Assembly (NCBI GenBank): GCA_043808425.1
Contig: JAZDEW010000064.1
Span: 11,772 to 75,771, forward strand
Direction of reading: 5' to 3'
From: Candidatus Omnitrophota bacterium
GTDB taxonomy: Bacteria > Omnitrophota > Gorgyraeia > Gygaellales > Profunditerraquicolaceae
DNA: 64,000 nucleotides
Made by a program: the position numbers and the translations under genes. Of the stretch, positions 1,468 through 59,509 are shown in pieces. Under the pieces are notes generated by a model. The model was given only the letters and a program-made list of their open reading frames with translations, had not been told where the DNA came from and did not search any database. How positions within the stretch are numbered: the stretch's first letter is position 1; each line of letters opens with the position of its first letter.

Positions 1468-1956
1468 TTAATAAAAACTCAGTAAGTATGAGGAGATCTT
1501 TTTTGTAAGCTTAAAAATTAAAGGTGATAAGGCCGTTGTATAAATACTAACAATTATCAAGTTGCGTAAAAAAATGCCTGGCGGCATAATATTTCCGGTC
1601 ACCACGCTTTGCAGCCCAATGATAAGATTATTTAACAAGGCTACCACCAAAACTATTGCCCAACGCACATAATCATTTTCAGTAGATATCTGACGGTTGA
1701 GCCGATATAACAAATAACTCCAGATGCTAAAACAAACTGTATTTATTGCCAGCGTCCAAGGCAGGAATACGTCTTTAGCCAATCCGGCTAGTATACCAAA
1801 TAATAAAGCGGTCTTAAAATCCGTATAAAAAACTAAAGCAATCATAAAAATCAACAAAAGGTCTGGTTTACAATAAAAAAAGTTTAAAAAATTTGGCCAT
1901 ACTAATTCTAGGGTAACTAGAATTAGTATGGCCAACAAAAAAAATAACTTTTTCAT
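1468..1956 (-). CDS. mreD: Rod shape-determining protein MreD
   Basis: 162-aa polytopic membrane protein. It overlaps the mreC stop by 4 nt and sits in the mreB-mreC-mreD-mrdA order. Confidence 0.7.
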   Translation of the reverse strand: MKKLFFLLAILILVTLELVWPNFLNFFYCKPDLLLIFMIALVFYTDFKTALLFGILAGLAKDVFLPWTLAINTVCFSIWSYLLYRLNRQISTENDYVRWAIVLVVALLNNLIIGLQSVVTGNIMPPGIFLRNLIIVSIYTTALSPLIFKLTKKISSYLLSFY

Positions 1957-2726
1957 GGAATAATCACCAATACCTCTTCAAGGCTGGCAAGATCCACAAT
2001 CGGCTTAATCAAGGCATAGCGGTTAAGTCCGGAAAACTCTCGTTTGATATTTACCACTCTGCCTACAAGCAAGCCCTTAGGATAAATCTGGCTTAATTCC
2101 GAAGTAATAATAATATCCCCCGCTATAATCTGGGCCTCATCCGGAAGATAGCGCATAATTAAATTAGTGCCCAAGGTCCCGCTAACCAATCCTTCTTGCC
2201 GACTGCGCTGTACAATGCTAAAGATGCCTTGATTAGGATCATTAATTAACTGCACCTTACTAGTGCTATCCGAGCTTTCTACTATTCTCCCCACTAATCC
2301 CTCAGGGCTAATCACCGCCATTCCAGACTTAATTCCGCTATATCTACCTTTATCAATAATCACGCTAGAAGACCAGCTATCCGGCGAGTGGCCGATAACC
2401 CTAGCGGCCACCAGGCGTAAAGAAGATTTCTGTTTAAAAACAAATAAATTATTAAGCCGAATATTTTCCTGGCTAATCTCGCGTAGATCAAACAAACGCC
2501 AACGTAACAAACTAATATCGTTTTGTAATTTTTCCGCTTGAACCATATTACGATGATAAAAAATAATACCGGAGATTTCGTGCTTAATTAAACCAATAAG
2601 AGAAAGATGGGGTTTGAATATTTTTTGCGCTGGATTTTTAAAACAAGATAAAGAAATAGCTACCAATAAAACAAGGCCAATGGCTAGAATAAAACTAATT
2701 AAGGTTTTACGGGGTAATTTAAACAC
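1953..2726 (-). CDS. mreC: Rod shape-determining protein MreC
   Basis: 257 aa with an N-terminal membrane anchor, a coiled-coil segment and a beta-rich C-terminal domain. It lies between mreB and mreD. Confidence 0.75.
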   Translation of the reverse strand: MFKLPRKTLISFILAIGLVLLVAISLSCFKNPAQKIFKPHLSLIGLIKHEISGIIFYHRNMVQAEKLQNDISLLRWRLFDLREISQENIRLNNLFVFKQKSSLRLVAARVIGHSPDSWSSSVIIDKGRYSGIKSGMAVISPEGLVGRIVESSDSTSKVQLINDPNQGIFSIVQRSRQEGLVSGTLGTNLIMRYLPDEAQIIAGDIIITSELSQIYPKGLLVGRVVNIKREFSGLNRYALIKPIVDLASLEEVLVIIP

Positions 2727-2799
2727 ATTTAATTAGAAAAACAGGTGACTTCACCTGGCGCAGATTGGTATTGCGCCAGTGTCGCCTCGTGGCGAAGAT

Positions 2800-3873
2800 T
2801 TAATTGCGTATTTCGGTTTTAACCGGCACGGTAACTTTCTTAAGATATTGAATTTCACTTAATACAATACCTGTTCCATTAGCTACCGCCGTAACCGGAT
2901 CATCAGTGATATGCACAGGCAGGCCCGTCTCTTCAGAAATTAATTTATCCAGCCCCCTTAATAATGAACCACCCCCGGCCATAACAATCCCGTGGTCAAT
3001 AAGATCCGCCGCTAACTCCGGAGGAGTTCTCTCTAAAGATATTTTTATAACTTCCAGTATGGCACGTAAAGTTTCTTGAAGGGATTCACGAATCTCCTCA
3101 CTAGTAATGGTAACGGTTTTAGGCAAACCCGCAACCAGATCCCTACCCTTAACCTCCATACTCATCTCCTCTTCTAAAGGGTAAGCAGAACCGATTTTGA
3201 TCTTAATCTCTTCAGAGGTACGTTCACCGACCATCAGGTTATATGTTTTCTTAAGATACTCAATGACCGCTTCATTCATTTCGTCCCCACCGATACGAAT
3301 AGACTTGGAAAAGACTGTTCCGCAAAGGGAAATTACGGCAATCTCTGTAGTACCTCCTCCAATATCAATAATCATATTCCCGATAGGTTCCTGAATAGGC
3401 AGGCCTACGCCGATAGCCGCCGCAATTGGCTCCTCAATCAAAAATACCTCTCGCGCTCCGGCCCGCTCCGCAGAATCCTTTACTGCCCGCTTTTCTACCT
3501 CCGTAATACCGGAGGGAATAGCAATAACAATTCTGGGCCTGACTAAAACTTTACGATGATGCACCTTCTTAATAAAATAGCGCAACATAGCCTCAGTAAT
3601 CTCAAAATCAGAAATAACTCCATCTTTCATCGGCCTGATCGCAATAATATTTCCAGGAGTACGCCCGAGCATGCGCTTGGCTTCTTCTCCTACCGCTAAA
3701 ACATGCGAAGTTCCTCTTTCGATAGCAACTACAGAAGGCTCACAAAGCACCACCCCTTCGCCCTTAACAAAGACTAAAGTCGTCGCAGTGCCCAAGTCAA
3801 TTCCCATATCATTAGAGAAAAGACCTAAGATATAATTAATTCCTTTCTTTAGTTGCTGACTTAATTTATTCAT
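2800..3873 (-). CDS. mreB: Rod shape-determining actin homologue MreB
   Basis: Contains [15 protein letters not shown], the actin-fold phosphate-1 motif, and the [11 protein letters not shown] motif. The start is called at the ATG at 3873 (MNKLSQQ), which follows a GGGAGA ribosome-binding site, not at the longer ORF start at 3930. Confidence 0.9.
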
Positions 3874-7560: not shown

Positions 7561-8295
7561 TTATTTTTTCTTAATCACACGCAACCTGAAGAATACCCCC
7601 AAAGAGAGAAAAAACATCACCGAGCATAAAATCTGGAAAAGAGTTAATCCAAAAAACAACCTTGGGCTATCGTTACGGAGGAATTCAATAAAAAAACGCT
7701 TTAAAGAATAAAGAAAAAGATAACCACAGAAAATCTCTCCCGGCCAATGTTTTCTATCTTGCTTAAATCTCAAGATAACAAAAATCAAAAGCATAAGCAG
7801 CGAAGAATACAGCTGGGTCGGTATTAAAATCTGATCAAAAGCTTTAAAATATAGTCCAAATTCAGATTCCCGGCCAAAACAACAACCATTTAATAAACAC
7901 CCTATTCTGCCAATCGCCTGGCCTAAAGCAACAAAAGGAACCAACAAATCTAAGCTCCTGAGCAAATTCATTTTATGTTTCTTAATAAACAGGGCTGCCG
8001 CGCTTGAACCAAAAACTAAGCCACCGAACCAGGCCATGCCTCCATGCTGCAGCATAATGATCTCCAAAGGATACTGCAAATAGAAACGAAAATTAATGAG
8101 CACATAAAATAGCCGTGAACCTATAATACCAAAAATAAAAACATAGAATAAAAGATTGAATACCTGCTCGCTGCTCATTTGCTCTTTTGCCGCCTGTAGA
8201 GAACTTAAATAGGCGCAAACAAAAAAAGCCAAAACCAGCATCAAGCCATAAGCATAAATCGTAAAAGTCCCTATCGTGCAAATTTCAGGCAGCAT
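7561..8295 (-). CDS. lgt: Prolipoprotein diacylglyceryl transferase
   Basis: Polytopic membrane protein with Lgt signature regions (GGMAWFGG, GRIGCLLNGCCFG). It is adjacent to lspA. Confidence 0.8.
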   Translation of the reverse strand: MLPEICTIGTFTIYAYGLMLVLAFFVCAYLSSLQAAKEQMSSEQVFNLLFYVFIFGIIGSRLFYVLINFRFYLQYPLEIIMLQHGGMAWFGGLVFGSSAAALFIKKHKMNLLRSLDLLVPFVALGQAIGRIGCLLNGCCFGRESEFGLYFKAFDQILIPTQLYSSLLMLLIFVILRFKQDRKHWPGEIFCGYLFLYSLKRFFIEFLRNDSPRLFFGLTLFQILCSVMFFLSLGVFFRLRVIKKK

Positions 8296-27991: not shown

Positions 27992-28079
27992 CCTTCCTGC
28001 CTGCCGGCAAGGCAGGCTTTCTTACTTGATTTATCAAGCCATATGCTTTTAATAATTGAATACTTAGAAGGTACTAGGT
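27992..28079. repeat. Bipartite intergenic repeat element, copy A, in the ftsI-murE spacer
   Basis: Imperfect palindrome CCTGCCTGCCGGCAaGGCAGG, then an AT-rich stretch, then the 26-nt stop-proximal box gaatacttagaaggtactaggttca that overlaps the ftsI stop. About 80% identical to copy B over roughly 80 nt. Confidence 0.7.
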
Positions 28080-33613: not shown

Positions 33614-33700
33614 CTTACACCTTCCTGCCTGCCGGCAGGCAGGCTTTCTTAATTAATTTATCAAACTGCATAACTTTAATAATTAAATACTTAGCTAAGT
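33614..33700. repeat. Bipartite intergenic repeat element, copy B, in the rbfA-nrnA spacer
   Basis: Perfect 20-nt palindrome CCTGCCTGCCGGCAGGCAGG at 33624-33643, lying 10 nt upstream of the nrnA ATG after AAGGTG on the coding strand, then an AT-rich stretch and a degenerate stop-proximal box. Confidence 0.7.
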
Positions 33701-39593: not shown

Positions 39594-39610
39594 CTATAGG
39601 ACTTGTTAAA

Positions 39611-40014: not shown

Positions 40015-41067
40015 TTATTTTTTAGCCTGTTCGCCCGCCCATTGCGATGAATTCATCGCCGCTCTTAATTCAGAGGTTCCTCCCACGGCTTTCTCCGCGA
40101 TGTCTTCTACTTTCTGGTAAGCTTTTTCCAACTGCGCTGACAGCTTAAGTAACTGCTCTTTCTGCTCCTTAACCAGGGTTTCAAAAGAATCTACTCGCGT
40201 TTGTAAAACGTTGCGTTCGCCTTCAAAAGATTTTTTTAGGAATTCTTCACGGTTTCGCGATTCTGCCTGGCACTTTTCCGTTGTTTCTTTGATTGTTTTC
40301 TGCGCCGCTAATTCCAGCTCTTTTGAAAAGCTCTCCATTTTCTTGCGTAAAGAACTCAATTCTCCTTCACTCTCCTTCATATAATTGTCGCGCTCTACCA
40401 TCTGTTTTTCTATAGCTTCCCGTTTTATTTGAAATTCCTTCTCTTTCTTGACTTGTTCGTCAGTAAATTTATCCAATGCCGCTTGTTTATCGCGTTTAAA
40501 TACATATTCATAGTCTTCTTTTTCCCGCTGGCGCGTACGATTATCCTCAGCTTGCTGTTCTTTTAACCTAGCATCATAACGTTTCCTATCTTCTTCCCGT
40601 TCCAACGCCAGTGCATCCATTCCATGTTCAAAAGCATTCTTCTTCTCTTCCATCTCTTGCTCATAATCAAGCCGTCTCTTATCCTGCGTTTCAATAAGCG
40701 CGGCCAGGCTCTGGGCGGCTTTATGTATTCCATATATCTCTTCCAGTTCTTTAGTTTTTATCTCCACCGCGTCCTTTACCTTACGATATCGCCCCACCTC
40801 ACCTTCCATTTCTTCCGCGATTTTACCAAGCATACCGCTAATATCCAGCCGCAGCTGGCCAATACTCTTAATCACTCCTTCTACCGATAGGCCATTAGCT
40901 TCTTCTACAATTTCCTTAGTTTTCCTTTGTTCAATTACAGCTTCTGGCCTTAATTCTAACGCGTTCTTTTCCTGAAGTTGTTTGAGTAATTCATTATAAG
41001 CCGCCACCATTTCTTGTTTAGTATTGGTAAGACTAACCTTCCGCTGTTCCTTAATTTTCTCAGCCAT
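40015..41067 (-). CDS. Hypothetical highly charged coiled-coil protein
   Basis: 350 aa rich in E, K, R and Q with a heptad-like periodicity. No catalytic motif seen. It lies at the inner edge of the defence island. Confidence 0.4.
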   Translation of the reverse strand: MAEKIKEQRKVSLTNTKQEMVAAYNELLKQLQEKNALELRPEAVIEQRKTKEIVEEANGLSVEGVIKSIGQLRLDISGMLGKIAEEMEGEVGRYRKVKDAVEIKTKELEEIYGIHKAAQSLAALIETQDKRRLDYEQEMEEKKNAFEHGMDALALEREEDRKRYDARLKEQQAEDNRTRQREKEDYEYVFKRDKQAALDKFTDEQVKKEKEFQIKREAIEKQMVERDNYMKESEGELSSLRKKMESFSKELELAAQKTIKETTEKCQAESRNREEFLKKSFEGERNVLQTRVDSFETLVKEQKEQLLKLSAQLEKAYQKVEDIAEKAVGGTSELRAAMNSSQWAGEQAKK

Positions 41068-41159: not shown

Positions 41160-41222
41160 ACGTCATTCTGAGCGTAGCGAAAAATCGCGTACCGTCGAGA
41201 TTCCTGCCTGCCGGCAGGCAGG
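41160..41222. repeat. Composite repeat: a half-copy of the 44.2 kb hairpin-repeat arm fused to the 20-nt CCTGCCTGCCGGCAGGCAGG palindrome
   Basis: cgtcattctgagcgtagcgaaaaatcgcgtaccgtcgagattc matches, in reverse complement, the right arm of the hairpin repeat in 44233..44357 (gaatctcgacg...cgctcaggatgacg). It is followed by the perfect palindrome at 41203-41222. Confidence 0.6.
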
Positions 41223-41273
41223 CTTCGTCGCTCCGCTGCCCAAAATAAAAAGCGTATATTTATATCTCAAAAA

Positions 41274-41597
41274 TTATTCTCGACGATAGATAATGTTTAA
41301 TTTGGACACGAGTGCTCTTTCATATATGATCCTTCCCTTAGATAAAATCCTTTTCTGGAAATGTTCTCTGATGTCGTCAAAATCGACCATATCAACTTCA
41401 TCATCTACCGCCATAGAGATTCTTCCATAATATTTAAAAAAGTCCTTAGCCTCAATTCCTTCTACCGCTATATCAATATCATTAGCCGTCTCAACGCTTT
41501 CCAGGCATGAGCCAAACAAAAATACTTTTTTCACATCAAACTCTTTGCTAATTTCTCCTATTTTAATCAATTCATTATCTAAAATTTCTTTTTTCAT
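41274..41597 (-). CDS. Minimal nucleotidyltransferase (MNT-like, pol-beta superfamily)
   Basis: GSxxxG..DxD-type motif (FLFGSCLESVETANDIDIAV). No HEPN partner ORF is adjacent. Confidence 0.7.
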   Translation of the reverse strand: MKKEILDNELIKIGEISKEFDVKKVFLFGSCLESVETANDIDIAVEGIEAKDFFKYYGRISMAVDDEVDMVDFDDIREHFQKRILSKGRIIYERALVSKLNIIYRRE

Positions 41598-41669
41598 TAC
41601 CTACCCCTCTCTTTTAACAAGGCCGTTTCTATTTTACCTTTGGTCAAAAACTATGCTAACTTTCTTCAT

Positions 41670-44126
41670 TTATTTAAAAATATCTAAAAAAAACCGGCCG
41701 GCCTGAACTATTTTTTTTATTGTCTCATCATCGGGTAATGGAATTTGAAGCGCCGGTTTCCCGGTTGCTTCATCTTTTTTTATTTTAATTCCAAAAGGAG
41801 GCTGCGTATCTGATAAAACCGATTCTTCCTTGGTATCGCTGTCAAGCTGTTTAAGCATCTTACCCAAAAAAGAAATCCCGGCTTCTAAAAAATTCCGCGC
41901 GGCTTCTCTAACAAACACGGGTTCCTGGGAAAAAGTTTTCTTGGCCTCTTCTTTTTGGCTATCTTCCTCTATAACCTCTTCGCGCGCCGCCTGTTCATCT
42001 TTTATTACTTCTTCAAACCCACCCCGCGAAACTTTCTCTTCTATCTTAGGTATACCCTCCGCGGCAGTCTCGACTGTTTTAATAAACTGATTAAAACGAG
42101 ACGTTCCCATAAACACTTCATTCTCTCCATTATCAAGTATGCCGGAAAACATGGAACGTTTAAATTTAAGAAGCGACAACATTCCCTGTTCGATAGAACC
42201 TTCGGTAATAAAATTAATCACCCTGACACAACGTTTTTGCCCTATGCGGTGAACACGGCAGATACGCTGCTCCAAAACCGCAGGGTTCCACGGTAAATCC
42301 AGATTAATAACCGTGGACGCGTTTTGCAGGTTAAGCCCCAGCCCGCCTGCCTCTGTTGATAAAAATACGCGGCAATTAGAATCTTCTTTAAACCTGCTGA
42401 TAAGTTCTCCTCGTTTATTACCCGGCACGCCTCCGTGGAGCCAGACGTATTTCCAACCACGCGCGTTCATCATCGCCATAACGAGTTCAAACATCCGAAT
42501 CCATTGTGAAAAAATCACTACTTTAGCGCCGCGATCTTCCAATAAATCTTGCAGTTGTATTTCTAATTCGCCAATTTTATTGCCGCTTCTTTTATTTAAG
42601 CCGATCAAATACGTATCGTCGCTAACCATTCTCATATTTTGCAGAGCCATCATCAGGCGCTGTTTATCCTCTTCGCTCAAAAACTTATACCGTTTCCATT
42701 TATTCACAATCCGGGCGGTAATCTCCCTGTTTTCTTCATGAATGGCAGACTGTTCGGCAGTCATTGCCACAAAATACTCTTTTTCTATTCGCCCGGGAAG
42801 CTGCGCTAAAACTTCTTTTTTCCTCCGGCGTATCAAAATAGGCCTTAATGATTCTCCTAATTTATTAAGATTGCGATATCCAATCGCCCGCCCTGTTTCA
42901 TCTATTATTTCGTGCGTATGCCGAAAACGAAAAAGCGGCCCTAAATGGTGCTTATCAATAAATCCGACAATAGAATGTAATTCTTCTAATCTGTTTTCCA
43001 GCGGCGTTCCGGTAAGGACAATCGCGTAAGGAGAGTAGATTTTTTTTACTGATTTGGCTAACCGCGTCCTCCAGTTTTTAATGCGCTGCGCCTCATCAAG
43101 TATTATAATATCCGGCTTCCATCCTTCAATAGCCTTAATATCGCGATGGATCACGTCATAATTGGTAATCTTAAAAAAACTCTCTTGCTTATACAATAAT
43201 TGTCTTTTAGATAATAAGCCCTGAACCACTTGAACAGAACGATGACTAAATCGCTGGATCTCTTTCTCCCATTGATGTTTTAAACTGGTAGGGCAAATAA
43301 TCAGCGCCTTTTCAATTCCAAAACAATCAGCCATAATTTCACTCGCCGCAATAGCCTGCAATGTTTTGCCCAGCCCCATATCATCCGCTATTATGCATCT
43401 GCCGGCTATTGCCGCGAATAACGCCCCTTCTTTTTGATAAGGGTATAATTTCGCCTTTAGTAAATCTCCAAACGCGGCGTCTTGTCCGCCCCGCGGAAAC
43501 TTTTTCTCAACGCGCTTTCTGCGGATATCCGCGTCTTTGGCCATAGCGATAAATAATAACGCGTCTTCATGATAGCGGACATCATCATCTAACAAATCCA
43601 CCTGTTTAACAAATTCATCAAAATGCTGCAAGCCCTCCGCGATTAGAAAGCCCTCGTGATCGAAAAATTGGTTAACTAATTTCTTAAGCGGATTACTAAC
43701 GCGCCGCCCCATAGAAAAGGCAACGCGGCGCCTAAGCCCATACCTCAAGGTAACAAAGGAATATTCCGGGACATAACCTTCTTTAAGTATCTTTTTTGCC
43801 CCCTTTTTTCTTCGTAATCTGCGTAAAAGGTATTCGATATGCTTACAGGTCCCTAATGTATTTACGGAATAATCAGGGCAAGAACAATAATTAACCCCTA
43901 ATTTCTCTCCCCAAATTACAACTCGATAGGCCCTTTCTGTTTTGAGATTAGTTAGTTCAAATGTTGAAAAAATTAGATCCGCGCCGATATTTTTTACCCG
44001 ATAAGCCTCATCTTGAGCAATCTGCCGCCTAAGTAGAATCTGCCATTCTTCTAAAGATAATTCCTTAGGTTTTACTGTATGCGAAAACCTTTTTATTACT
44101 TTTTTACTTTTTTTCTTTGTGGACAT
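41670..44126 (-). CDS. SNF2-family helicase/ATPase with an N-terminal SWIM zinc finger
   Basis: SWIM CxC...CxH motif (YCSCPDYSVNTLGTCKHIEYLL), SNF2 motifs I and II (DDMGLGKTLQAIA; ILDEAQRIKN) and a helicase C domain. Confidence 0.85.
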   Translation of the reverse strand: MSTKKKSKKVIKRFSHTVKPKELSLEEWQILLRRQIAQDEAYRVKNIGADLIFSTFELTNLKTERAYRVVIWGEKLGVNYCSCPDYSVNTLGTCKHIEYLLRRLRRKKGAKKILKEGYVPEYSFVTLRYGLRRRVAFSMGRRVSNPLKKLVNQFFDHEGFLIAEGLQHFDEFVKQVDLLDDDVRYHEDALLFIAMAKDADIRRKRVEKKFPRGGQDAAFGDLLKAKLYPYQKEGALFAAIAGRCIIADDMGLGKTLQAIAASEIMADCFGIEKALIICPTSLKHQWEKEIQRFSHRSVQVVQGLLSKRQLLYKQESFFKITNYDVIHRDIKAIEGWKPDIIILDEAQRIKNWRTRLAKSVKKIYSPYAIVLTGTPLENRLEELHSIVGFIDKHHLGPLFRFRHTHEIIDETGRAIGYRNLNKLGESLRPILIRRRKKEVLAQLPGRIEKEYFVAMTAEQSAIHEENREITARIVNKWKRYKFLSEEDKQRLMMALQNMRMVSDDTYLIGLNKRSGNKIGELEIQLQDLLEDRGAKVVIFSQWIRMFELVMAMMNARGWKYVWLHGGVPGNKRGELISRFKEDSNCRVFLSTEAGGLGLNLQNASTVINLDLPWNPAVLEQRICRVHRIGQKRCVRVINFITEGSIEQGMLSLLKFKRSMFSGILDNGENEVFMGTSRFNQFIKTVETAAEGIPKIEEKVSRGGFEEVIKDEQAAREEVIEEDSQKEEAKKTFSQEPVFVREAARNFLEAGISFLGKMLKQLDSDTKEESVLSDTQPPFGIKIKKDEATGKPALQIPLPDDETIKKIVQAGRFFLDIFK

Positions 44127-44232
44127 AAATCTACACTCACTTCCCCGCGCTGCTCCCTCTTCGTTCTTTATTAGCCATACTTTACACCTTGATCCCTATC
44201 CGATAAGTCCTCAAGCTTACCGCGAAACTTCT

Positions 44233-44357
44233 TATCAAGTGACTGTTGCGAAATGCAATTTGTGGCGTCATTCTGAGGCCGGAGGCCGAAGAATCTCGAC
44301 GCTGATAAGATCCTTCGCTTCGCTCAGGATGACGAAAATTTGTATTTCGCAACAATC
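44233..44357. repeat. Long imperfect hairpin (MITE-like inverted repeat) in the spacer between res and the SNF2-family helicase gene
   Basis: Left arm gttgcgaaatgcaatttgtggcgtcattctgagg. Right arm cgctcaggatgacgaaaatttgtatttcgcaac. The arms are reverse complements with a few mismatches and flank a roughly 50-nt core. Confidence 0.65.
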
Positions 44358-44444
44358 CCATCAAAAACCCTATTGTCACAAAAATATTCTATAAATTCGG
44401 AATAACTATTCGGACTCAAAAAGCGAAAGAAGTATTCCCTATTA

Positions 44445-47222
44445 TTAACTCAATAATTGCTTAGTGAAAATTTCTTCAAAAACTTGTTCTTTTTCTTTAT
44501 TAAATAATGGCAATCCGATTAATTTATAATCCTTATTTTCCGCTTTCAGCAAATTTCCATTACTATATTTATCCGTAATTTGTTGTAAAAATTCTTCTTT
44601 CCAGCCTTCTTTGCTCTCTTTAAATCCGTTTTTTTTATCCGCAAATTGTCCGCCTTTCGGTTCAATAAAAATTTGATAGTATAAATTGCCTTTTTTGCCT
44701 TTCAAAAACAGCAAAAAGTCCGGCTCAAATCCGCGCCCCTGCTCAAAGTCATAAATTTTATATATTTCTTCATTTCGAAGCAAATAAACCTCATTATATT
44801 TCTCTTCTAAATTTCCAATTCTATCCTTTAAAAATTCAAGTAAACCAATTTCTTCACTTGTTCCAACAAAACCATCCAGCACATACCATTTATTTTTCAA
44901 TACTTCGTTTTCATAACTTTTGCTATACTTTTCTATATTTATACTTTTTTCTTTTGGCTCGCCAAACAAATCCTCAAAAGAAAAAGATTCAAATTTTTCT
45001 GTTCCTTTATATGGATTAGCGATTTCTTTAAGCTTTCTTGCAAATTCATCAAAAAACCCCAGTAATAATTCCAGCTTTTCTTCATTACTAATATCGCTTA
45101 AATCGTTTTTATCTTTTGGGGCAATTATATTGATCTTAAAATTGCCAATAAAATTATCCGTAAAGATTTCATCAATACTGTTTAAGCTCAATTCATTCTG
45201 TAAATTTTCAAACCGCAAAAGCGACAAATCTTTTGCCGCCTTTTTATTGATTGCTTTCGCGATGATATGCTTTTCAAAATCTTTAAGTTTTTTACTAATT
45301 GTTTTACTGCCTTTTGATAAACTTTCCGTGAGAATTTCATCTTTCTCTCTATCTAAGATAACCTGCTGTTCTTTCATTGCGAACTTTCTCGTTTTATATT
45401 CAAAAACAAACTCTTTTTCCAGCTCAGCCAATGTCATTTTTCTTTTTACCGGATTGTCCTTTTTTTCGTTTTTCCAGACTTTTATTTCTTTGAAAAAATC
45501 GCTTTGCTTAAATTCATCTTTTAGCGCGAATTTCTTTATCTGGCGATTCTCTTGAATAAATCCTTTATTTTTAAGCTCTCTTTTTAATTCGTCAAGATAA
45601 TGCGAATCATCATCACTATGATAATAAAATTCTTCCAATACTCTAAGCGGATTTTCCAAATCATTATCAAATTTTCTTTTGTTTTTCTCGCACTCATTAT
45701 AGGCAAAAGGAAAATAACGCACGCCTCTGCCGATTAGCTGAATTTCTTGTACAGTCGCCTCTCCGGCTTTTCTTTTTCCGGTGCTTTTTTCTTTTCCTTC
45801 ATCGCGCCCTTCGTAAAGCCTGACAATATCAAAAAGATTCAATACATCCCATCCTTCTGTTAACCGTTTTACCGTAAAAACCGCGCGAATATGATTATTT
45901 TTATCTTCCAAACTATTCAGCAATTGATCCTGCTCTTCTGTCGTCCTCTCCTTAGTAATTGCCTTATTGTCTTTTGAATTGGTTATAATACAATTTCTTT
46001 CGGCAAACTCGTCTTTAATATAGTTCACGATTTTGCTAATGCTTTTTTTATCATTAATAAACTTAAGCATTTGCTTAACCCTGCTTCTGCCTTGCTCATA
46101 TACCTTAGTTGAATTTGAATCATCTTGTTTTATGCTATTTTCAATGTTTTTTAAAAAATCAAAATCAGCCGGTTTTAATTCGGCAATTAGAGATATAAAT
46201 TCTTGATAATCATTTTTTGATTCTTCAATAAATTTGCTTCTAAAAAGTATTACCGGCTTGAAATTAGCAATCTTGTTTTTAAGCGCGATTTGATGGCGAT
46301 ACCAGTTAAAAAGCAAGGCGAGCAAGATCTTTTCTTTCTTTTTCAGCGAAGTTGAAACAAGGTTTATTTCTTTGGTATAGCCGGCTCTAAGAAAGTCAAC
46401 GAGTTCAAATTTATAAATTGTTTTAGGACGGTATTTTTCTATAACATCCACGTTTTGCGGTATTGTCGCGGTGAATTCCAATAAAACATTTCTATTCTCA
46501 ATATCTTGCTTATTCTTACCTCTTTTTAGGATTTTATTAATTATTGTATTTTCCCAGCTTTTCTCAATATCTTTTTCGCTGGCACTTTCCTTCAATTCCA
46601 AAGGTAAATCCAATTCAGCCTGCCCGTTTCTCATTGTTGAAGCGTTAAGATGATGCGCTTCGTCGCCAATCATTACCAAATCTTTTTTCTGCAAATCGAA
46701 AAGCGTCACTTCGTTTTCTTTAGCCAAATAAACCGCGTTATGAAGCTTGTGAATTGAAGTAAATTTTATCTGAATATCGTCCGTGCTGTCAAAAGTCTCC
46801 ACTTTGCGGATATTGATGGTTCTATCTTCAATCACGATATTTTGACGAAAAATGTATTTGGTGTGATTTTTATTGATAAAATTATTTTCCGTCTTATCTA
46901 CGATATTGTTTTGATTAACAAAGAAAATAAAATACCTGCGGCCTTTTTTGTAGTAATACAAAATCAACGCCGCCATCAGCATGGTTTTGCCGGTGCCGGT
47001 CGCCATATTAAACATCAGATGCGTCGGCTCAAAATTATTCTCTTTTACTTTGATCTTTTCCCAAATTAAAAAACTTTCCAACGCTTCTTTCTGCCATTGC
47101 CACAAAGAATGCCGGATATTTTCCGCGATAAAAACCGGTATCTGCACATCCTGCTTGGTAATACCCAAGTTAAAAGCTTCATCTCTAACTTGACCGGATA
47201 AATCCCTGCTTAAATCATACAT
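44445..47222 (-). CDS. res: Type III restriction-modification system restriction subunit (Res; helicase plus PD-ExK nuclease)
   Basis: Walker A motif FNMATGTGKT, DEAH box IGDEAHH, C-terminal EPDF...IEPKG nuclease motif. It lies downstream of a DPPY methyltransferase gene. Confidence 0.8.
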   Translation of the reverse strand: MYDLSRDLSGQVRDEAFNLGITKQDVQIPVFIAENIRHSLWQWQKEALESFLIWEKIKVKENNFEPTHLMFNMATGTGKTMLMAALILYYYKKGRRYFIFFVNQNNIVDKTENNFINKNHTKYIFRQNIVIEDRTINIRKVETFDSTDDIQIKFTSIHKLHNAVYLAKENEVTLFDLQKKDLVMIGDEAHHLNASTMRNGQAELDLPLELKESASEKDIEKSWENTIINKILKRGKNKQDIENRNVLLEFTATIPQNVDVIEKYRPKTIYKFELVDFLRAGYTKEINLVSTSLKKKEKILLALLFNWYRHQIALKNKIANFKPVILFRSKFIEESKNDYQEFISLIAELKPADFDFLKNIENSIKQDDSNSTKVYEQGRSRVKQMLKFINDKKSISKIVNYIKDEFAERNCIITNSKDNKAITKERTTEEQDQLLNSLEDKNNHIRAVFTVKRLTEGWDVLNLFDIVRLYEGRDEGKEKSTGKRKAGEATVQEIQLIGRGVRYFPFAYNECEKNKRKFDNDLENPLRVLEEFYYHSDDDSHYLDELKRELKNKGFIQENRQIKKFALKDEFKQSDFFKEIKVWKNEKKDNPVKRKMTLAELEKEFVFEYKTRKFAMKEQQVILDREKDEILTESLSKGSKTISKKLKDFEKHIIAKAINKKAAKDLSLLRFENLQNELSLNSIDEIFTDNFIGNFKINIIAPKDKNDLSDISNEEKLELLLGFFDEFARKLKEIANPYKGTEKFESFSFEDLFGEPKEKSINIEKYSKSYENEVLKNKWYVLDGFVGTSEEIGLLEFLKDRIGNLEEKYNEVYLLRNEEIYKIYDFEQGRGFEPDFLLFLKGKKGNLYYQIFIEPKGGQFADKKNGFKESKEGWKEEFLQQITDKYSNGNLLKAENKDYKLIGLPLFNKEKEQVFEEIFTKQLLS

Positions 47223-47248
47223 ATTATTTGGGGTTATAAAATTTTCGC

Positions 47249-48301
47249 TTAAGGCAATATCCTCTTTTGAGATTCGGTATTTTTTAAAAGTTTTTTTACT
47301 TCACGATCAAAATCAGAAACAAAAAGTTTGTCTTGAACCGGTTTGTATTTCTCGAATTCGCTTTCCGCGAAAGATTTAGCTATTTCTGCCGTTACTTTTC
47401 CCGCGTTTTCCAAAATTTTCGCATCGTTAAATTTCAGAAAAGCGTTTAATTTTCCTGACCAGTCCCGCATTGTCATGGGTATCCCTTTTTCCGCTTGGTA
47501 TTCGGCATAATCAAGATACATAGTTACAATTCTGTTTAAAAATTTTATTTCTTTTTCATTAAGATAATTTTTGGCAATTACCACATCGGATTTTAGAATT
47601 TTCCCGTCCGCTGATTTTTTCCAAGTAGTAAGCCCCATATAGTCTTTAGTGTGATTGGCGCGATTGACAATAACTTCCGCCGCCGTGTGCCCATGCGTGG
47701 CAAAATGAAGTTTGTTTTGAACTGTGGCAAAAAAATCTTTGGTCGTTGGAGACCGTAAATCATAATCAATTGCAGTTACATAAATATCTGTAATTTGTTG
47801 ATAAAAATTTCTTTCACTCTCGCGAATATCGCGAATTTCAAGTATCAAATCTTTGAAATACTGCTTACTTAAATATGCTCCATTTTTTAATCTCACATCG
47901 TCAAGAACATATCCCCGAATAGCGTAATCTTTCAAAACTTGAGTAGCCCACCGTCTAAAATCTACTGCCTTTGAGGAATTAATTCTGTATCCAAGAGCGA
48001 TAATAATTTCTAAATTATAATAGTCAACCGCTCTTTTTATCTGCCTATCTCCTTCTTTTTGAACTGTTTCCAAAATGGAAATAGTTGCTTTTTTTGACAA
48101 TTCTCCTTCATCGTAAATATTTTTTAAATGTTTGGAAATAGCCGGAATATTCACGTCAAAAAGTTTTGCGATAAGTTTTTGAGTAAGCCAAATATTTTCA
48201 TCGTAAATTCTCACTTCAATGCCATTCTCTTCGGCTTGAGATGTGAAAATAAGAAATTCCGCGGTAGAATTACGAATTATAAGTTTTTTATCTTTTGCCA
48301 T
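47249..48301 (-). CDS. rhuM: RhuM-family protein (virulence protein RhuM-like)
   Basis: N-terminus AEFLIFTSQAEENGIEVRIYDENIWLTQKLIAKLFDV...HLKNIYDEGEL matches the conserved RhuM N-terminal domain. It is intercalated between mod and res. Confidence 0.65.
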   Translation of the reverse strand: MAKDKKLIIRNSTAEFLIFTSQAEENGIEVRIYDENIWLTQKLIAKLFDVNIPAISKHLKNIYDEGELSKKATISILETVQKEGDRQIKRAVDYYNLEIIIALGYRINSSKAVDFRRWATQVLKDYAIRGYVLDDVRLKNGAYLSKQYFKDLILEIRDIRESERNFYQQITDIYVTAIDYDLRSPTTKDFFATVQNKLHFATHGHTAAEVIVNRANHTKDYMGLTTWKKSADGKILKSDVVIAKNYLNEKEIKFLNRIVTMYLDYAEYQAEKGIPMTMRDWSGKLNAFLKFNDAKILENAGKVTAEIAKSFAESEFEKYKPVQDKLFVSDFDREVKKLLKNTESQKRILP

Positions 48302-48309
48302 AATTATAT

Positions 48310-50316
48310 CTAACGGGGTAAATAAAATTCTTCGCTTAAAGCGATATCTGCTTTGGAAAGATTATATTTTTTATCCGCTCGCTCGCTAAAATTCACATAC
48401 ATTTGGTTCAGATCCAACATTTCCACAAAAAGTTTTTTCTGTTTGTCCAAACCCAGCTTTTTAAATTCTTCCTCTTTAACGCTTTCTTGGAATTTTTTAA
48501 TTTCAACATTGTAATTGATAAAATATCGTTCATAAAGCTCATCAAATAATTTTTCCAATTCGCTTAAATTCTTGGCTTTCAAAATTCTCTCTTTGGCTTC
48601 TTCGTTCCATTTGGCAATTTCAAGATATACAAAATCCCCAGCCTTATTGTTTTCAATAACTTTTTTAACCCGTTCTTTTGTCACTGTATCAACATAGTGC
48701 ATTTGCTCGCACAAAATAAACTGCCGGTTTCCGCCATCTTCTTTGTTTAATTCTAAAACCGCGTGAGCGGTGGTTCCGCTTCCAGCAAAAAAATCAAGAA
48801 CAATATCTTCTTTACCTCGCTCTGTAACAATATCAATAGTATCTTTAACTGTATAAAGGGATTTAGGATAACTAAATAATTTATCTCCCGAAAAAATATT
48901 TTTCAATAGCATCGTACCATTTGCTGAAGCATCATATTTTGAATCAATCCATATCGTTTTTGGCTTTCTGCCATCCTTAATTCTATCCTTCATATAAATA
49001 ACACATTTTCCAGTAGTTTTTTTACAAACCATATCACCTCTTTTAACAGCTTCTAAAAAAGATGGCCGTGTTTGTCTCCAAACTCGTTTTTTCCCAAGCT
49101 TATCAATTGGAAATATTTCAATGTATCCCGATTTTTTATCAAGAGCAAAAATATTATTTTTTTCATCAAAATATATTGGATAGTATGAATTCGGCCTTTC
49201 TTCTGGAGTAGAAGTTCCGCCACTTCGCCTAAACGGCAAAAGACGATAGTCCCCTGAATTATCTTTTTTATCAAAATCTAATTCTTGCTCTTTTGTTAAT
49301 TTAAGAAAATTCAACGAAACCTGATCAATATCTTTCGCATAAAACATTGCGTACTCGTGTGAAGTCGCAAAATGCGTATTTGTAGTTCTGCCCCGTGGAT
49401 TACTTTGCACAATAACCGTACCAACAAAATTTTCTCTTCCAAATACTTCGTCGCTTAAAATTTTCAAATGAGCTTGCTCAGAATCATCAATGGTAACAAC
49501 AATTACTCCCTCGTCGCTCAATAATGTTTTTGCTATGTCCAATCGATTCTTAATAAAAGTCAGCCAAGAAGAGTGGTTAAAACTGTTATTATAGACAAAG
49601 GTATTATTTTCTCCTTCTGTATTATACGGCGGATCAATATAAATCAATTTTACTTTTCCAGCAAATTGCTCTTTTAAACAATGCAAGACAAGCAAATTAT
49701 TGCCCTTGATAATCAAATTATCCTTAATCACGCCATTTTCATCGCGGCGAAAACCGAGATTGCCGCGGTCGCTATCGCTCCCTCGCAATGACAGCATAGA
49801 ATGCTCGCCGTCTCTGTCTATTCGTTTAAAATTAGTAAATGCTTTGGGATCAAAAAGCCGGTCAATTTCATCTTTGGCTAAAACTTCATTAAAGAATACC
49901 TCGTTTCTTTTTTGATCTTCTTTGGTCATGCCGCCTTCCAACACACAATCCTTGAAAGGCCAATCCAAAACAACCTCTTCACGCTCGGAAAGAAGTTTAT
50001 TGCCAACGCGTAAACCGATTTTATTTTGATATTGAGTATACGAATTATCCAGCTTATTTTCATCAATAAAAAATTTCAAATCATTATGTTTTAAAACAAA
50101 AACATCTTTAATCCTGATAAAAAACTTTTCTTTTATTTCTTTATCGCTAAGTAACAATTCAATAATTTTCTCATCCAGCTTATCAATCAAATCTTTCAAA
50201 AGAGTCTCGTTGATCTCTTTTTTTTCTTCATCCCAAAGCCGAGCGTCTTTTTTAAGTATTTTATACAGATTGTCTTTAAATTTGTTTCCCATAGTAAAAT
50301 TTTCCCTTTTTTCCAT
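48310..50316 (-). CDS. mod: Type III restriction-modification system methyltransferase subunit (Mod; beta-class N6-adenine/N4-cytosine MTase)
   Basis: Motif IV DPPY (LIYIDPPYNTE) precedes motif I FxGSG (VLDFFAGSGTTAHAV), which is the beta-class order. A long middle region is consistent with a target-recognition domain. Confidence 0.82.
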   Translation of the reverse strand: MEKRENFTMGNKFKDNLYKILKKDARLWDEEKKEINETLLKDLIDKLDEKIIELLLSDKEIKEKFFIRIKDVFVLKHNDLKFFIDENKLDNSYTQYQNKIGLRVGNKLLSEREEVVLDWPFKDCVLEGGMTKEDQKRNEVFFNEVLAKDEIDRLFDPKAFTNFKRIDRDGEHSMLSLRGSDSDRGNLGFRRDENGVIKDNLIIKGNNLLVLHCLKEQFAGKVKLIYIDPPYNTEGENNTFVYNNSFNHSSWLTFIKNRLDIAKTLLSDEGVIVVTIDDSEQAHLKILSDEVFGRENFVGTVIVQSNPRGRTTNTHFATSHEYAMFYAKDIDQVSLNFLKLTKEQELDFDKKDNSGDYRLLPFRRSGGTSTPEERPNSYYPIYFDEKNNIFALDKKSGYIEIFPIDKLGKKRVWRQTRPSFLEAVKRGDMVCKKTTGKCVIYMKDRIKDGRKPKTIWIDSKYDASANGTMLLKNIFSGDKLFSYPKSLYTVKDTIDIVTERGKEDIVLDFFAGSGTTAHAVLELNKEDGGNRQFILCEQMHYVDTVTKERVKKVIENNKAGDFVYLEIAKWNEEAKERILKAKNLSELEKLFDELYERYFINYNVEIKKFQESVKEEEFKKLGLDKQKKLFVEMLDLNQMYVNFSERADKKYNLSKADIALSEEFYLPR

Positions 50317-51908: not shown

Positions 51909-51986
51909 TGGTCGGGGAGAGCGGATTTGAACCGCTGACCTCTTGCTCCCGAAGCAAGCGCTCTAGCCAAGCTGAGCCACTCCCCG
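51909..51986 (-). tRNA. tRNA-Pro (anticodon CGG)
   Basis: Minus-strand sequence CGGGGAGTGGCTCAGCTTGGCTAGAGCGCTTGCTTCGGGAGCAAGAGGTCAGCGGTTCAAATCCGCTCTCCCCGACCA folds as a cloverleaf. It has a 7-bp acceptor stem, a GCTC/GAGC D stem, a CTTGC/GCAAG anticodon stem with loop TTCGGGA, a GGTTCAAAT T loop and an encoded CCA. Confidence 0.88.
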
Positions 51987-57644: not shown

Positions 57645-57800
57645 ATACTCATTGGCGGGTCCGCCGTACATTATAGCGGAAATCTTCTTCCATCTGGACT
57701 ATGACCATCGGCCCTGGAATCTCACCAGATCTGTCCGCCAATGAATTAAAGGCTGACTCGCGGGCTAAACCGCCGGTAAGGATTTTCACCTTGCCCTAAA
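57645..57800 (-). ncRNA. FMN riboswitch (RFN element) controlling ribBA-ribH
   Basis: Minus strand has AGGGCAAGGTGAAAATCCTTACCGGCGGTTTAGCCCGCGAG ... CAGATCTGGTGAGATTCCAGGGCCGATGG ... AGTCCAGATGGAAGAAG. These match conserved RFN blocks (GGTGAAATTCC, CCGGCGGTA, AGCCCGCGA, GATCTGGT, GATGGGAGAAG). Confidence 0.8.
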
Positions 57801-57871
57801 GATTAATTGCTATTTAGTTTAACAGAGAAACTAGACTTGTCAATATATTTAAAACGGGTATAATATCTATT

Positions 57872-59392: not shown

Positions 59393-59509
59393 CGTACACC
59401 TTCCTGCCTGCCGGCAGGCAGGCTTTCATATTTAATTTTTTAATTTGATTCCTACTTTTATAAATTCTATATTTCTAACCCCTTGAATACATAGAAAGTG
59501 CGGGATTCA
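59393..59509. repeat. Bipartite intergenic repeat element, copy D, in the rimO-pgsA spacer
   Basis: Perfect palindrome at 59403-59422 followed on the coding strand by AAGGTGTACG-ATG(pgsA). The 26-nt box ttgaatacatagaaagtgcgggattca overlaps the rimO stop. Confidence 0.7.

Follow-up and report, generated by a model that had tools for sequence, protein, structure and literature searches.

Two published repeat systems resemble the element described here. CGTC-tagged repetitive extragenic palindromes (REPs) were defined by Di Nocera, De Gregorio and Rocco (2013, BMC Genomics 14:522; PMC3733652), who equated dRS3 with CGTC-1 and concluded that these repeats have no dedicated transposase. Chenal et al. 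(2025, Nat Commun 16:2388; PMC11893778) described the Neisseria motif NTS, CGTCATTCCCGCGMAVGCGGGAATCYRG, which includes dRS3, and generalised it to Ssn-related motifs (SRMs), which flank genes for single-domain GIY-YIG proteins of about 94 amino acids (cd10448), named Ssn. SsnA binds its motif solely as single-stranded DNA, cuts a few nucleotides 5' of it and is inactive on duplex DNA and on RNA; in N. meningitidis it reduces transformation by NTS-bearing DNA. Binding or cutting is lost on mutation of the C that follows the hairpin or of the 3 nt that precede this C (PMC11893778). The arrangement NTS-ssnA-NTS was likened by the same authors to an insertion sequence and compared with the REP/RAYT system (PMC11893778). 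We analysed a 64,000-nt stretch of a Candidatus Omnitrophota genome (contig JAZDEW010000064.1; hereafter the window), in which a 121-bp palindrome at 44239-44359 precedes an SNF2 helicase gene. It is very probably a non-autonomous transposable element of the miniature inverted-repeat class (MITE), inserted in the SNF2 5' leader with duplication of TTGAT and carrying as its core a tail-to-tail pair of SRM-variant hairpins.

The SNF2 gene (41670-44126) and the type III restriction gene res (44445-47222) both lie on the minus strand, and the 318 nt between the res stop and the SNF2 start (44127-44444) contain the long imperfect palindrome. The initial annotation had named both genes correctly and had placed the palindrome at 44233-44357, within 6 nt on the left and 2 nt on the right of the limits used here. 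These limits, 44239-44359, were set from one empty site in a related Omnitrophota contig (L323) and from three further copies, and they coincide with the indel against L323 and with the end of homology in a four-copy alignment (A3). The left outer terminal inverted repeat, GTGACTGTTGCGAAATGCAATTTGTGG (44239-44265, plus strand), pairs with the right one (44335-44359; minus-strand sequence GGGATTGTTGCGAAATACAAATTTT), the paired arms being 44244-44261 and 44337-44354. The termini, inverted repeats of about 26 nt, read GRGACTGTTGCGAAAT...ATTTCGCAACAGTCYC, and the ends GRGACTGTTGCGRAAT are kept in all four copies known as DNA. Inside them lie a left SRM-like unit, CGTCATTCTGAG-GCCGGAGGC-CGAAGAATC (44266-44295, plus strand), with a GGCC/GGCC tip stem and the fold topology of Neisseria NTS, and a right unit of canonical form, CGTCATCCTGAGCGAAGCGAAGGATC (44309-44334, minus strand), an exact match to the pattern GTCATYCTGAGCGNAGCGAARRATC. 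cGTCATTCTGAG (44266-44277) and CTCAGGATGACg (44323-44334) form the inner arms, and the central spacer between the unit tails, TCGACGCTGATAA (44296-44308), is likewise kept in all four copies. On either side stands the 5-bp direct repeat ATCAA (44234-44238 and 44360-44364; TTGAT on the gene strand), which we read as a target-site duplication, a single TTGAT being present in L323.

Relatives of the region (L321-L330) were reached by homology search with SNF2, which also matched an identical protein from a Candidatus Omnitrophota metagenome-assembled genome. The SNF2 of L323 is 87% identical to that of the window, and the two share the same SNF2 leader, in L323 without the element: 36 of 41 nt are identical upstream of the site and 92 of 107, gap-free, downstream. 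L323 is short of exactly 126 nt, which is the whole palindrome including its outer arms plus one copy of the 5-bp repeat. Read on the gene strand, the window has GGGTTTTTGAT, the element (GGGATTGTTGCG...CGCAACAGTCAC), TTGAT and AAGAAG, whereas L323 passes directly from GGGTTTTTGAT to AAGCAA. The initial annotation had offered as one option a recombination scar delimiting two separately acquired island segments. A scar or attachment site at such a junction would be in keeping with the variable hot spot upstream of SNF2, where each relative has different defence genes, but the insertion site lies about 35 nt within the block conserved with L323, not where that block meets the variable island. 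Since the leader is conserved to either side of the element, which is a clean 126-nt indel off the homology boundary, and since the same element is found beside ftsA (L331) and in an unrelated open reading frame (ORF; L393), we regard this origin as extremely improbable.

Further copies were found by translating the element and searching protein collections; gene callers often call ORFs across repeats. The search matched P0241 and then P0242-P0245, and DNA was recovered for three copies. Six copies in unrelated contexts are now known, four as DNA (the window, L331, L392 and L393) and two as peptides only (P0244 and P0245), which bears out the earlier view that the repeat forms a dispersed family and is not a solitary terminator. 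Besides the copy adjoining ftsA, one lies on a short contig (L392) and one (L393, 1805-1925) within a called ORF of 562 amino acids without Pfam match (1501-3189), where with its 5-bp duplication it adds 126 nt, or 42 codons, in frame. This in-frame insertion is reminiscent of the Rickettsia palindromic elements. Homology in the four-way DNA alignment is confined to the element, with ends GRGACTGTTGCG...CGCAACARTCYC; the flanks are unrelated, and identity to the window copy is 85-93%. The 5-bp flank pairs are TTGAT/TTGAT (window), TAGTT/TAGTT, ATCAT/ATCGT and CAATA/CATTA, matching at 5/5, 5/5, 4/5 and 4/5 positions, and the chance that all four would match at 4/5 or better is about 6e-8. Thus, the element is a MITE: it has terminal inverted repeats and 5-bp target-site duplications, is non-coding and shorter than 300 bp (121 bp), occurs in several contexts and has an empty site. 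The miniature mobile element was another option of the initial annotation, and it is the one favoured by four DNA copies with terminal inverted repeats and one empty site; the target-site duplications that it had advised looking for were present, as 5-bp repeats, at all four.

Correia/NEMIS MITEs and the Rickettsia palindromic elements share with the window element a length below 300 bp, absence of coding sequence, terminal inverted repeats, short target duplications, strong hairpins and a location beside or inside genes. Their sequences are unrelated to it, and its core, unlike theirs, is a pair of nuclease-recognition hairpins. The composite pattern had no match in IMG/VR, and the element had none among PLSDB plasmids or INPHARED phages (E <= 0.01). 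The outer repeat alone gave 22 IMG/VR matches, all single, partnerless and without extended similarity, and was set aside, as this is about the number we estimate for chance.

The core of the element belongs to a far wider family. It is a tail-to-tail pair of 26-30-nt units, CGTCATYCTGAGCGNAGCGAAGRATC, and the 11-mer GTCATTCTGAG occurs with at most one mismatch three times in the window (in the two inner arms and at 41162), against 0.38 expected; none of 100 shuffles reached three. The exact 25-mer GTCATYCTGAGCGNAGCGAARRATC was found in at least 120 stretches of species-representative genomes and in at least 120 IMG/VR viral contigs. The statistics in the rest of this paragraph come from these 240 loci and refer to the matches listed, among which the genomes represent Nitrospirota, Chloroflexota, Acidobacteriota, Bacteroidota, Patescibacteria, Omnitrophota, Planctomycetota, Bacillota, Pseudomonadota and others. 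A reverse-complement partner within 400 nt lies downstream of 138 of 284 units and upstream of only 19 of 287, with a mode of 60-100 nt for the total length of the pair (the inner pair of the window measures 67 nt). Hairpin pairs were intergenic in 86% of cases, compared with 18% of random positions, and we found no added bias towards convergent or 3' gene ends beyond this intergenic placement. At the free position the two arms covary (64 of 105 concordant, 30.7 expected).

Each unit has the layout CGTC-ATYCT-GA-(tip)-GA-AGRAT-C, that is, a 5' CGTC head, a stem ATYCT/AGRAT, a tandem G.A step, a tip hairpin and a 3' C. The canonical tip is GC-GNA-GC, and GCGNAGC is present in 334 of 653 units; GCGAAGC is a classic, very stable DNA mini-hairpin. 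The 245 different non-canonical tips also tend to pair, 58% having a terminal stem of at least 2 bp compared with 7.5% of shuffles, and across the four MITE copies the left-unit tip carries compensatory changes (GGCC-GGA-GGCC, GGCC-GAA-GGCC and TCC-GAA-GGA). The predicted DNA fold of a unit consists of a 4-nt 5' tail, a stem and a 3' tail, a layout like that of Neisseria NTS. Many units (L047, L083, L089, L101, L109, L005, L046 and L333) are preceded by two to four tandem repeats with a period of 19-23 nt. These combine the first 12 nt or so of the unit (GTCATCCTGAGC) with 7-10 nt of other sequence, and in some cases a mirror-image set stands at the opposite end. Additional binding sites are one possible explanation, traces left by recurrent cutting and repair another.

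These features place the core close to both published classes. Like the window units CGTCATTCTGAG...GAAGAATC and CGTCATCCTGAGCGAAGCGAAGGATC, SRMs are oriented motifs with a 5' (C)GTCAT head, a hairpin whose stem begins AT and a conserved C immediately past the hairpin; like window-type units, they are multi-copy and intergenic and flank GIY-YIG genes of about 94 codons on both sides. The published SRM has a continuous stem of 8 bp, whereas the window type has 5 bp, a tandem G.A step, a 2-4-bp tip and a GNA triloop. Its hosts also differ, being mostly uncultured phyla (Omnitrophota, Chloroflexota, Acidobacteriota and the candidate phyla radiation) together with IMG/VR contigs, and, unlike published SRMs, the window pair is packaged in a MITE with outer inverted repeats and 5-bp duplications. 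With CGTC-tagged REPs the unit shares the unpaired CGTC or TGTC tag (L333 and L062 have TGTC-tagged variants), A/T at stem positions 1-2, a short unpaired tail, a mostly intergenic location and frequent inverted dimers able to form larger structures. Those repeats have stems of 8-9 bp, loops of 4-5 nt and mostly head-to-head dimers, and are known from five phyla (PMC3733652), whereas the window unit has an interrupted stem (5 bp, a 2x2 G.A step and 2-4 bp), a 3-nt loop and a tail-to-tail arrangement. Judged by sequence, the core is filed as an SRM or CGTC-REP variant outside the published definition. The REP or bacterial interspersed mosaic element system with its REP-associated tyrosine transposases (RAYTs) is an analogy and not a membership: there too, short tagged hairpins are recognised, they bracket a small nuclease gene and gene-less copies are amplified, but RAYTs are HUH tyrosine enzymes with GTAG-tagged repeats, in contrast to the CGTC tag and GIY-YIG nuclease here.

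Packaging of such pairs inside lineage-specific outer repeats is recurrent. In acidobacterial copies (L007, L014, L019, L071, L079, L095, L098 and L112) a different outer inverted repeat, ACAGGCTGCGGAAAAA, followed by 10-13 nt, encloses the SRM-like pair, and in L003, L085 and L233 the outer arms are of the AAATGC(A/G)A type, as in the window. Outer palindromic extensions exceeded the 99th percentile of controls in just 7 of 105 family pairs, so they are not general.

The palindrome as a whole is strongly structured. Folded as RNA it reaches -53.5 kcal/mol on the plus strand (z = -6.3) and -49.7 kcal/mol on the minus strand (z = -4.9), and none of 200 shuffles did as well on either strand, so that the folding check suggested in the initial annotation came out in its favour; folded as DNA it has z-scores of -4.8 and -4.9. 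The minus-strand transcript fold might point to an element acting in RNA: between res and SNF2 it could serve as a terminator, as a hairpin that stabilises mRNA or as a target for RNase III, with dispersal only secondary. Such roles are often proposed for REP-type repeats (PMC3733652). However, on the gene strand the sequence after the hairpin has no T run, a terminator scan of 44127-44444 was empty, and the plus strand, antisense to the genes, folds better. L323, a close relative, has the leader without the element, and the hairpins of the wider family have no convergent or 3' position bias beyond intergenic placement. Rfam searches with the element and with canonical family members were empty, both at gathering scores and at E <= 10, and SsnA, the known partner of this class, binds single-stranded DNA and not RNA (PMC11893778). 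We therefore hold an RNA-level element to be quite improbable, and the last two points also count against the structured small RNA that the initial annotation had listed as an option.

We investigated whether the units are linked to GIY-YIG genes. In three loci (L115, L021 and L078) a GIY-YIG ORF of about 90 codons abuts the units. For an unbiased test, 80 metagenome loci were picked solely by two GIY-YIG peptide patterns, and the unit 13-mer was counted, with at most two mismatches, within 160 nt of the gene. A forward motif lay upstream in 27 loci, a reverse motif downstream in 30 and both in 13, with about 50 loci having a motif in any orientation; by our own estimate, chance would give fewer than one. 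In the clearest loci the upstream unit faces inward and lies 50-110 nt before the start, and the stop codon is overlapped by a unit in reverse orientation. The cassette has a constant anatomy of left unit, 20-30 nt, ATG and an ORF of 90-105 amino acids that runs into the right unit, so that ssn-type genes lie between outward-facing units and stop at the TGA inside the terminal ATGAC of the right unit (for example in L258, L280, L304, L293 and L278, and in proteins P0006, P0009, P0021 and P0046). It is because the ORF runs into the right unit that many database proteins end in ...DSSLRSE or ...DPSLRSG. Some others start with translated repeat (MSLRAKRSNL...).

With protein P0019 as query, tblastn found a 94-aa ORF that has canonical NTS copies around it in N. 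gonorrhoeae (47% identity, E 6e-17). When a profile of the unit-linked proteins was compared with this gonococcal protein by hhalign, the probability was 99.75% (E 2.7e-27), with 45% identity across 88 of 94 residues. Y5, Y16 and E63, which are invariant in the unit-linked proteins, align with the catalytic Y6, Y17 and E64 of SsnA (PMC11893778). The GIY-YIG proteins that accompany the window's unit are thus, as far as sequence can tell, full-length Ssn homologues. Motifs flanking a Rhizobium homologue fit the published SRM pattern, and those beside a Planktothrix homologue with 69% identity to P0019 read TGTCATTCTGAGTGAAACGAAGAATCTC, the variant of the window. The UPF0213/YhbQ structures 1ZG2 and 1YWL were distant matches only (E 4e-7), and NCBIfam and PHROGs gave no informative name for these proteins. 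A tie between the repeats and genes for 23S-IVS four-helix-bundle proteins had been considered and was dropped, as the data favoured the GIY-YIG link. The anchor for NTS-flanked ssnA was provided by two PLSDB records, NZ_CP119140.1 and NZ_CP119142.1; these are 2.17-Mb N. gonorrhoeae records filed as plasmids that look like chromosomes.

Several results weigh against the reading of the element as a MITE with an SRM-variant core. The published SRM pattern, HGTCWYN(0-2)YYVSBRHN(0-5)WNVSBRGN(0-2)RNCYNB, had no match in the window, in any of 293 exact units or at any of the 80 ssn loci, and the same expression does recover NTS in the gonococcus and SRMs in Rhizobium. Taken alone, a unit has a weak nearest-neighbour energy as DNA, at -2.7 kcal/mol no better than that of shuffles. 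No ssn gene was detected in the 64-kb window or in the fetched relatives (E <= 1), and neither IMG/VR nor the fetched loci yielded an autonomous element sharing the ends of the MITE. There is one empty site and no outgroup, so that insertion is not formally polarised against precise deletion; in L321, L322 and L324-L330 the shared sequence ends some 25 nt upstream of the SNF2 start, and these relatives supplied neither further empty sites nor an outgroup. Finally, bare hairpins of the wider family (n = 104) had no target-duplication signal above control, and the 5-bp duplication therefore belongs to the outer repeats.

A mechanism can be proposed in which the locus becomes single-stranded, during replication, uptake or repair, and each arm folds. 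A cognate Ssn, presumably encoded elsewhere in the genome, would then bind the folded arm and nick it 5' of the CGTC head. By analogy with Neisseria, motif-bearing single-stranded DNA might be restricted or trimmed, and recombination near the flanked genes affected. The composite itself would be moved by a transposase recognising the outer repeats, with the SRM pair carried inside. As a side effect, any res-to-SNF2 transcript is predicted to contain a long hairpin.

Could the Ssn-type nuclease itself mobilise the whole element, SRM pair included, with no separate transposase? On this account the 5' cuts at outward-facing units would nick both strands at the boundaries, and the element would be a deletion derivative of an SRM-ssn-SRM cassette, itself a transposon or homing element driven by the nuclease. 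The cassette does resemble an insertion sequence, with its outward units and its stop codon inside the right unit, a likeness also noted in PMC11893778, and some contigs, among them L093, L106, L283 and L303, contain paralogous copies and tandem arrays. SRM-like pairs, moreover, come and go within the lineage. L323 has an SRM-like inverted pair of its own (CGTCATCCTGAGGAGTCCGCC...GGGCTCAGAATGACG, 7859-7961) between the acylphosphatase gene and ligA, a gap that elsewhere measures just 17-18 nt (window 39594-39610; L321 8659-8676; L322). The SNF2 leader and the acylphosphatase-ligA gap are thus a reciprocal presence/absence polymorphism within one lineage, and these two sites, window against L323, support an Ssn-driven mobile class. 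However, Ssn has been demonstrated to cut single-stranded DNA and not to join it (PMC11893778), and the ends and duplications of the window family lie about 27 nt beyond the unit heads and not a few nucleotides from them. Mobilisation of the window element by Ssn is accordingly, in our view, unlikely. An ordinary transposase acting on the outer repeats is the more likely mover, because the conserved ends and 5-bp duplications are found at that distance outside the unit heads and bare pairs have no duplication signal. We are similarly doubtful that SRM pairs and SRM-ssn-SRM cassettes are a true mobile-element class driven by a GIY-YIG single-strand nuclease of about 95 amino acids. If they were, the window element and its relatives would be non-autonomous derivatives still moving in Omnitrophota, and the route of transposition or homing would be one not known among bacterial insertion sequences.

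Returning to the MITE with an SRM-variant core, the repeat class is already published, as CGTC-tagged REPs in 2013 and as Ssn/SRM in 2025, and its basic discovery is not new. A very common motif variant, GTCATYCTGAGCGNAGCGAAGRATC, which the published SRM pattern misses, brackets ssn genes in many uncultured phyla and viral contigs, and the published SRM census therefore probably undercounts the system. The presence/absence data with target duplications are direct evidence that an SRM-bearing element is mobile, which PMC11893778 put forward as a hypothesis. The element's position, within the leader of a conserved SNF2 gene and at a hot spot for defence islands, offers a place to test the effects of such hairpins on recombination and expression. 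For annotation, the repeat accounts for many metagenome gene calls that are spurious 'hypothetical proteins' or carry a C-terminal tail of the ...DSSLRSE or ...DPSLRSG kind.

The block conserved in the relatives comprises SNF2, acylphosphatase, ligA and an Xer-type integrase, and the sequence upstream of SNF2 is different in every contig. The hot spot (window 41274-50316; L321-L330) lies directly upstream of the conserved SNF2, and its cargo differs from one relative to the next: type III mod-RhuM-res in the window, mod-res-MNT-HepT in L321, RmuC and Bro-N in L323, and AbiEii and an HATPase in L329. The interval between SNF2 and acylphosphatase varies as well. It holds an MNT-type nucleotidyltransferase gene (41274-41597) and an ORF of 350 amino acids without Pfam match (40015-41067) in the window, is gene-free in L323, and contains a 102-aa ORF and a ParE-type toxin gene in L321 and L322. 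At gathering score, the only Rfam matches in the window were an FMN riboswitch (57678-57807, minus strand, 110 bits) and a tRNA (51912-51986, minus strand).

The initial annotation had described a half-copy of the arm, in opposite orientation and fused to a palindrome, at 41160-41222. The repeat and the palindrome are indeed there, but the half-copy gave way to an intact plus-strand unit accompanied by a decayed right arm. The unit, CGTCATTCTGAGCGTAGCGAAAAATC (41161-41186), has the same orientation as the left arm of the MITE. The right-arm remnant (41197-41237, minus strand) consists of GAGATT (41197-41202) and CTTCGTCGCTCCGCT (41223-41237), split exactly by a 20-nt palindrome (41203-41222), and its terminal 12 nt or so, CCTCAGAATGAC, are lost. 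With the palindrome removed the arm reads GAGATTCTTCGTCGCTCCGCT, a variant that is intact in L022, L024, L030 and L090. On this reconstruction, the pair at this locus has decayed and carries a nested insertion. The SNF2-MNT segment lies between the window's two SRM loci.

The perfect 20-nt palindrome, CCTGCCTGCCGGCAGGCAGG, has exact copies in the window at 33624-33643, 41203-41222 and 59403-59422, and an imperfect one at about 27997-28018. Three of the copies occupy short gaps and, read on the gene strand, immediately precede the ribosome-binding site and start of the next gene (GCAGGCAGGAAGGTGTAAGATG). Exact copies with unrelated flanks also occur in 35 IMG/VR contigs (L335-L369), and the sequence looks like a tiny insertion-prone palindrome. 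In L366 it interrupts an apparent tRNA D-arm, and in L359 it occupies the variable-arm position of a tRNA-Met that is still called by ARAGORN.

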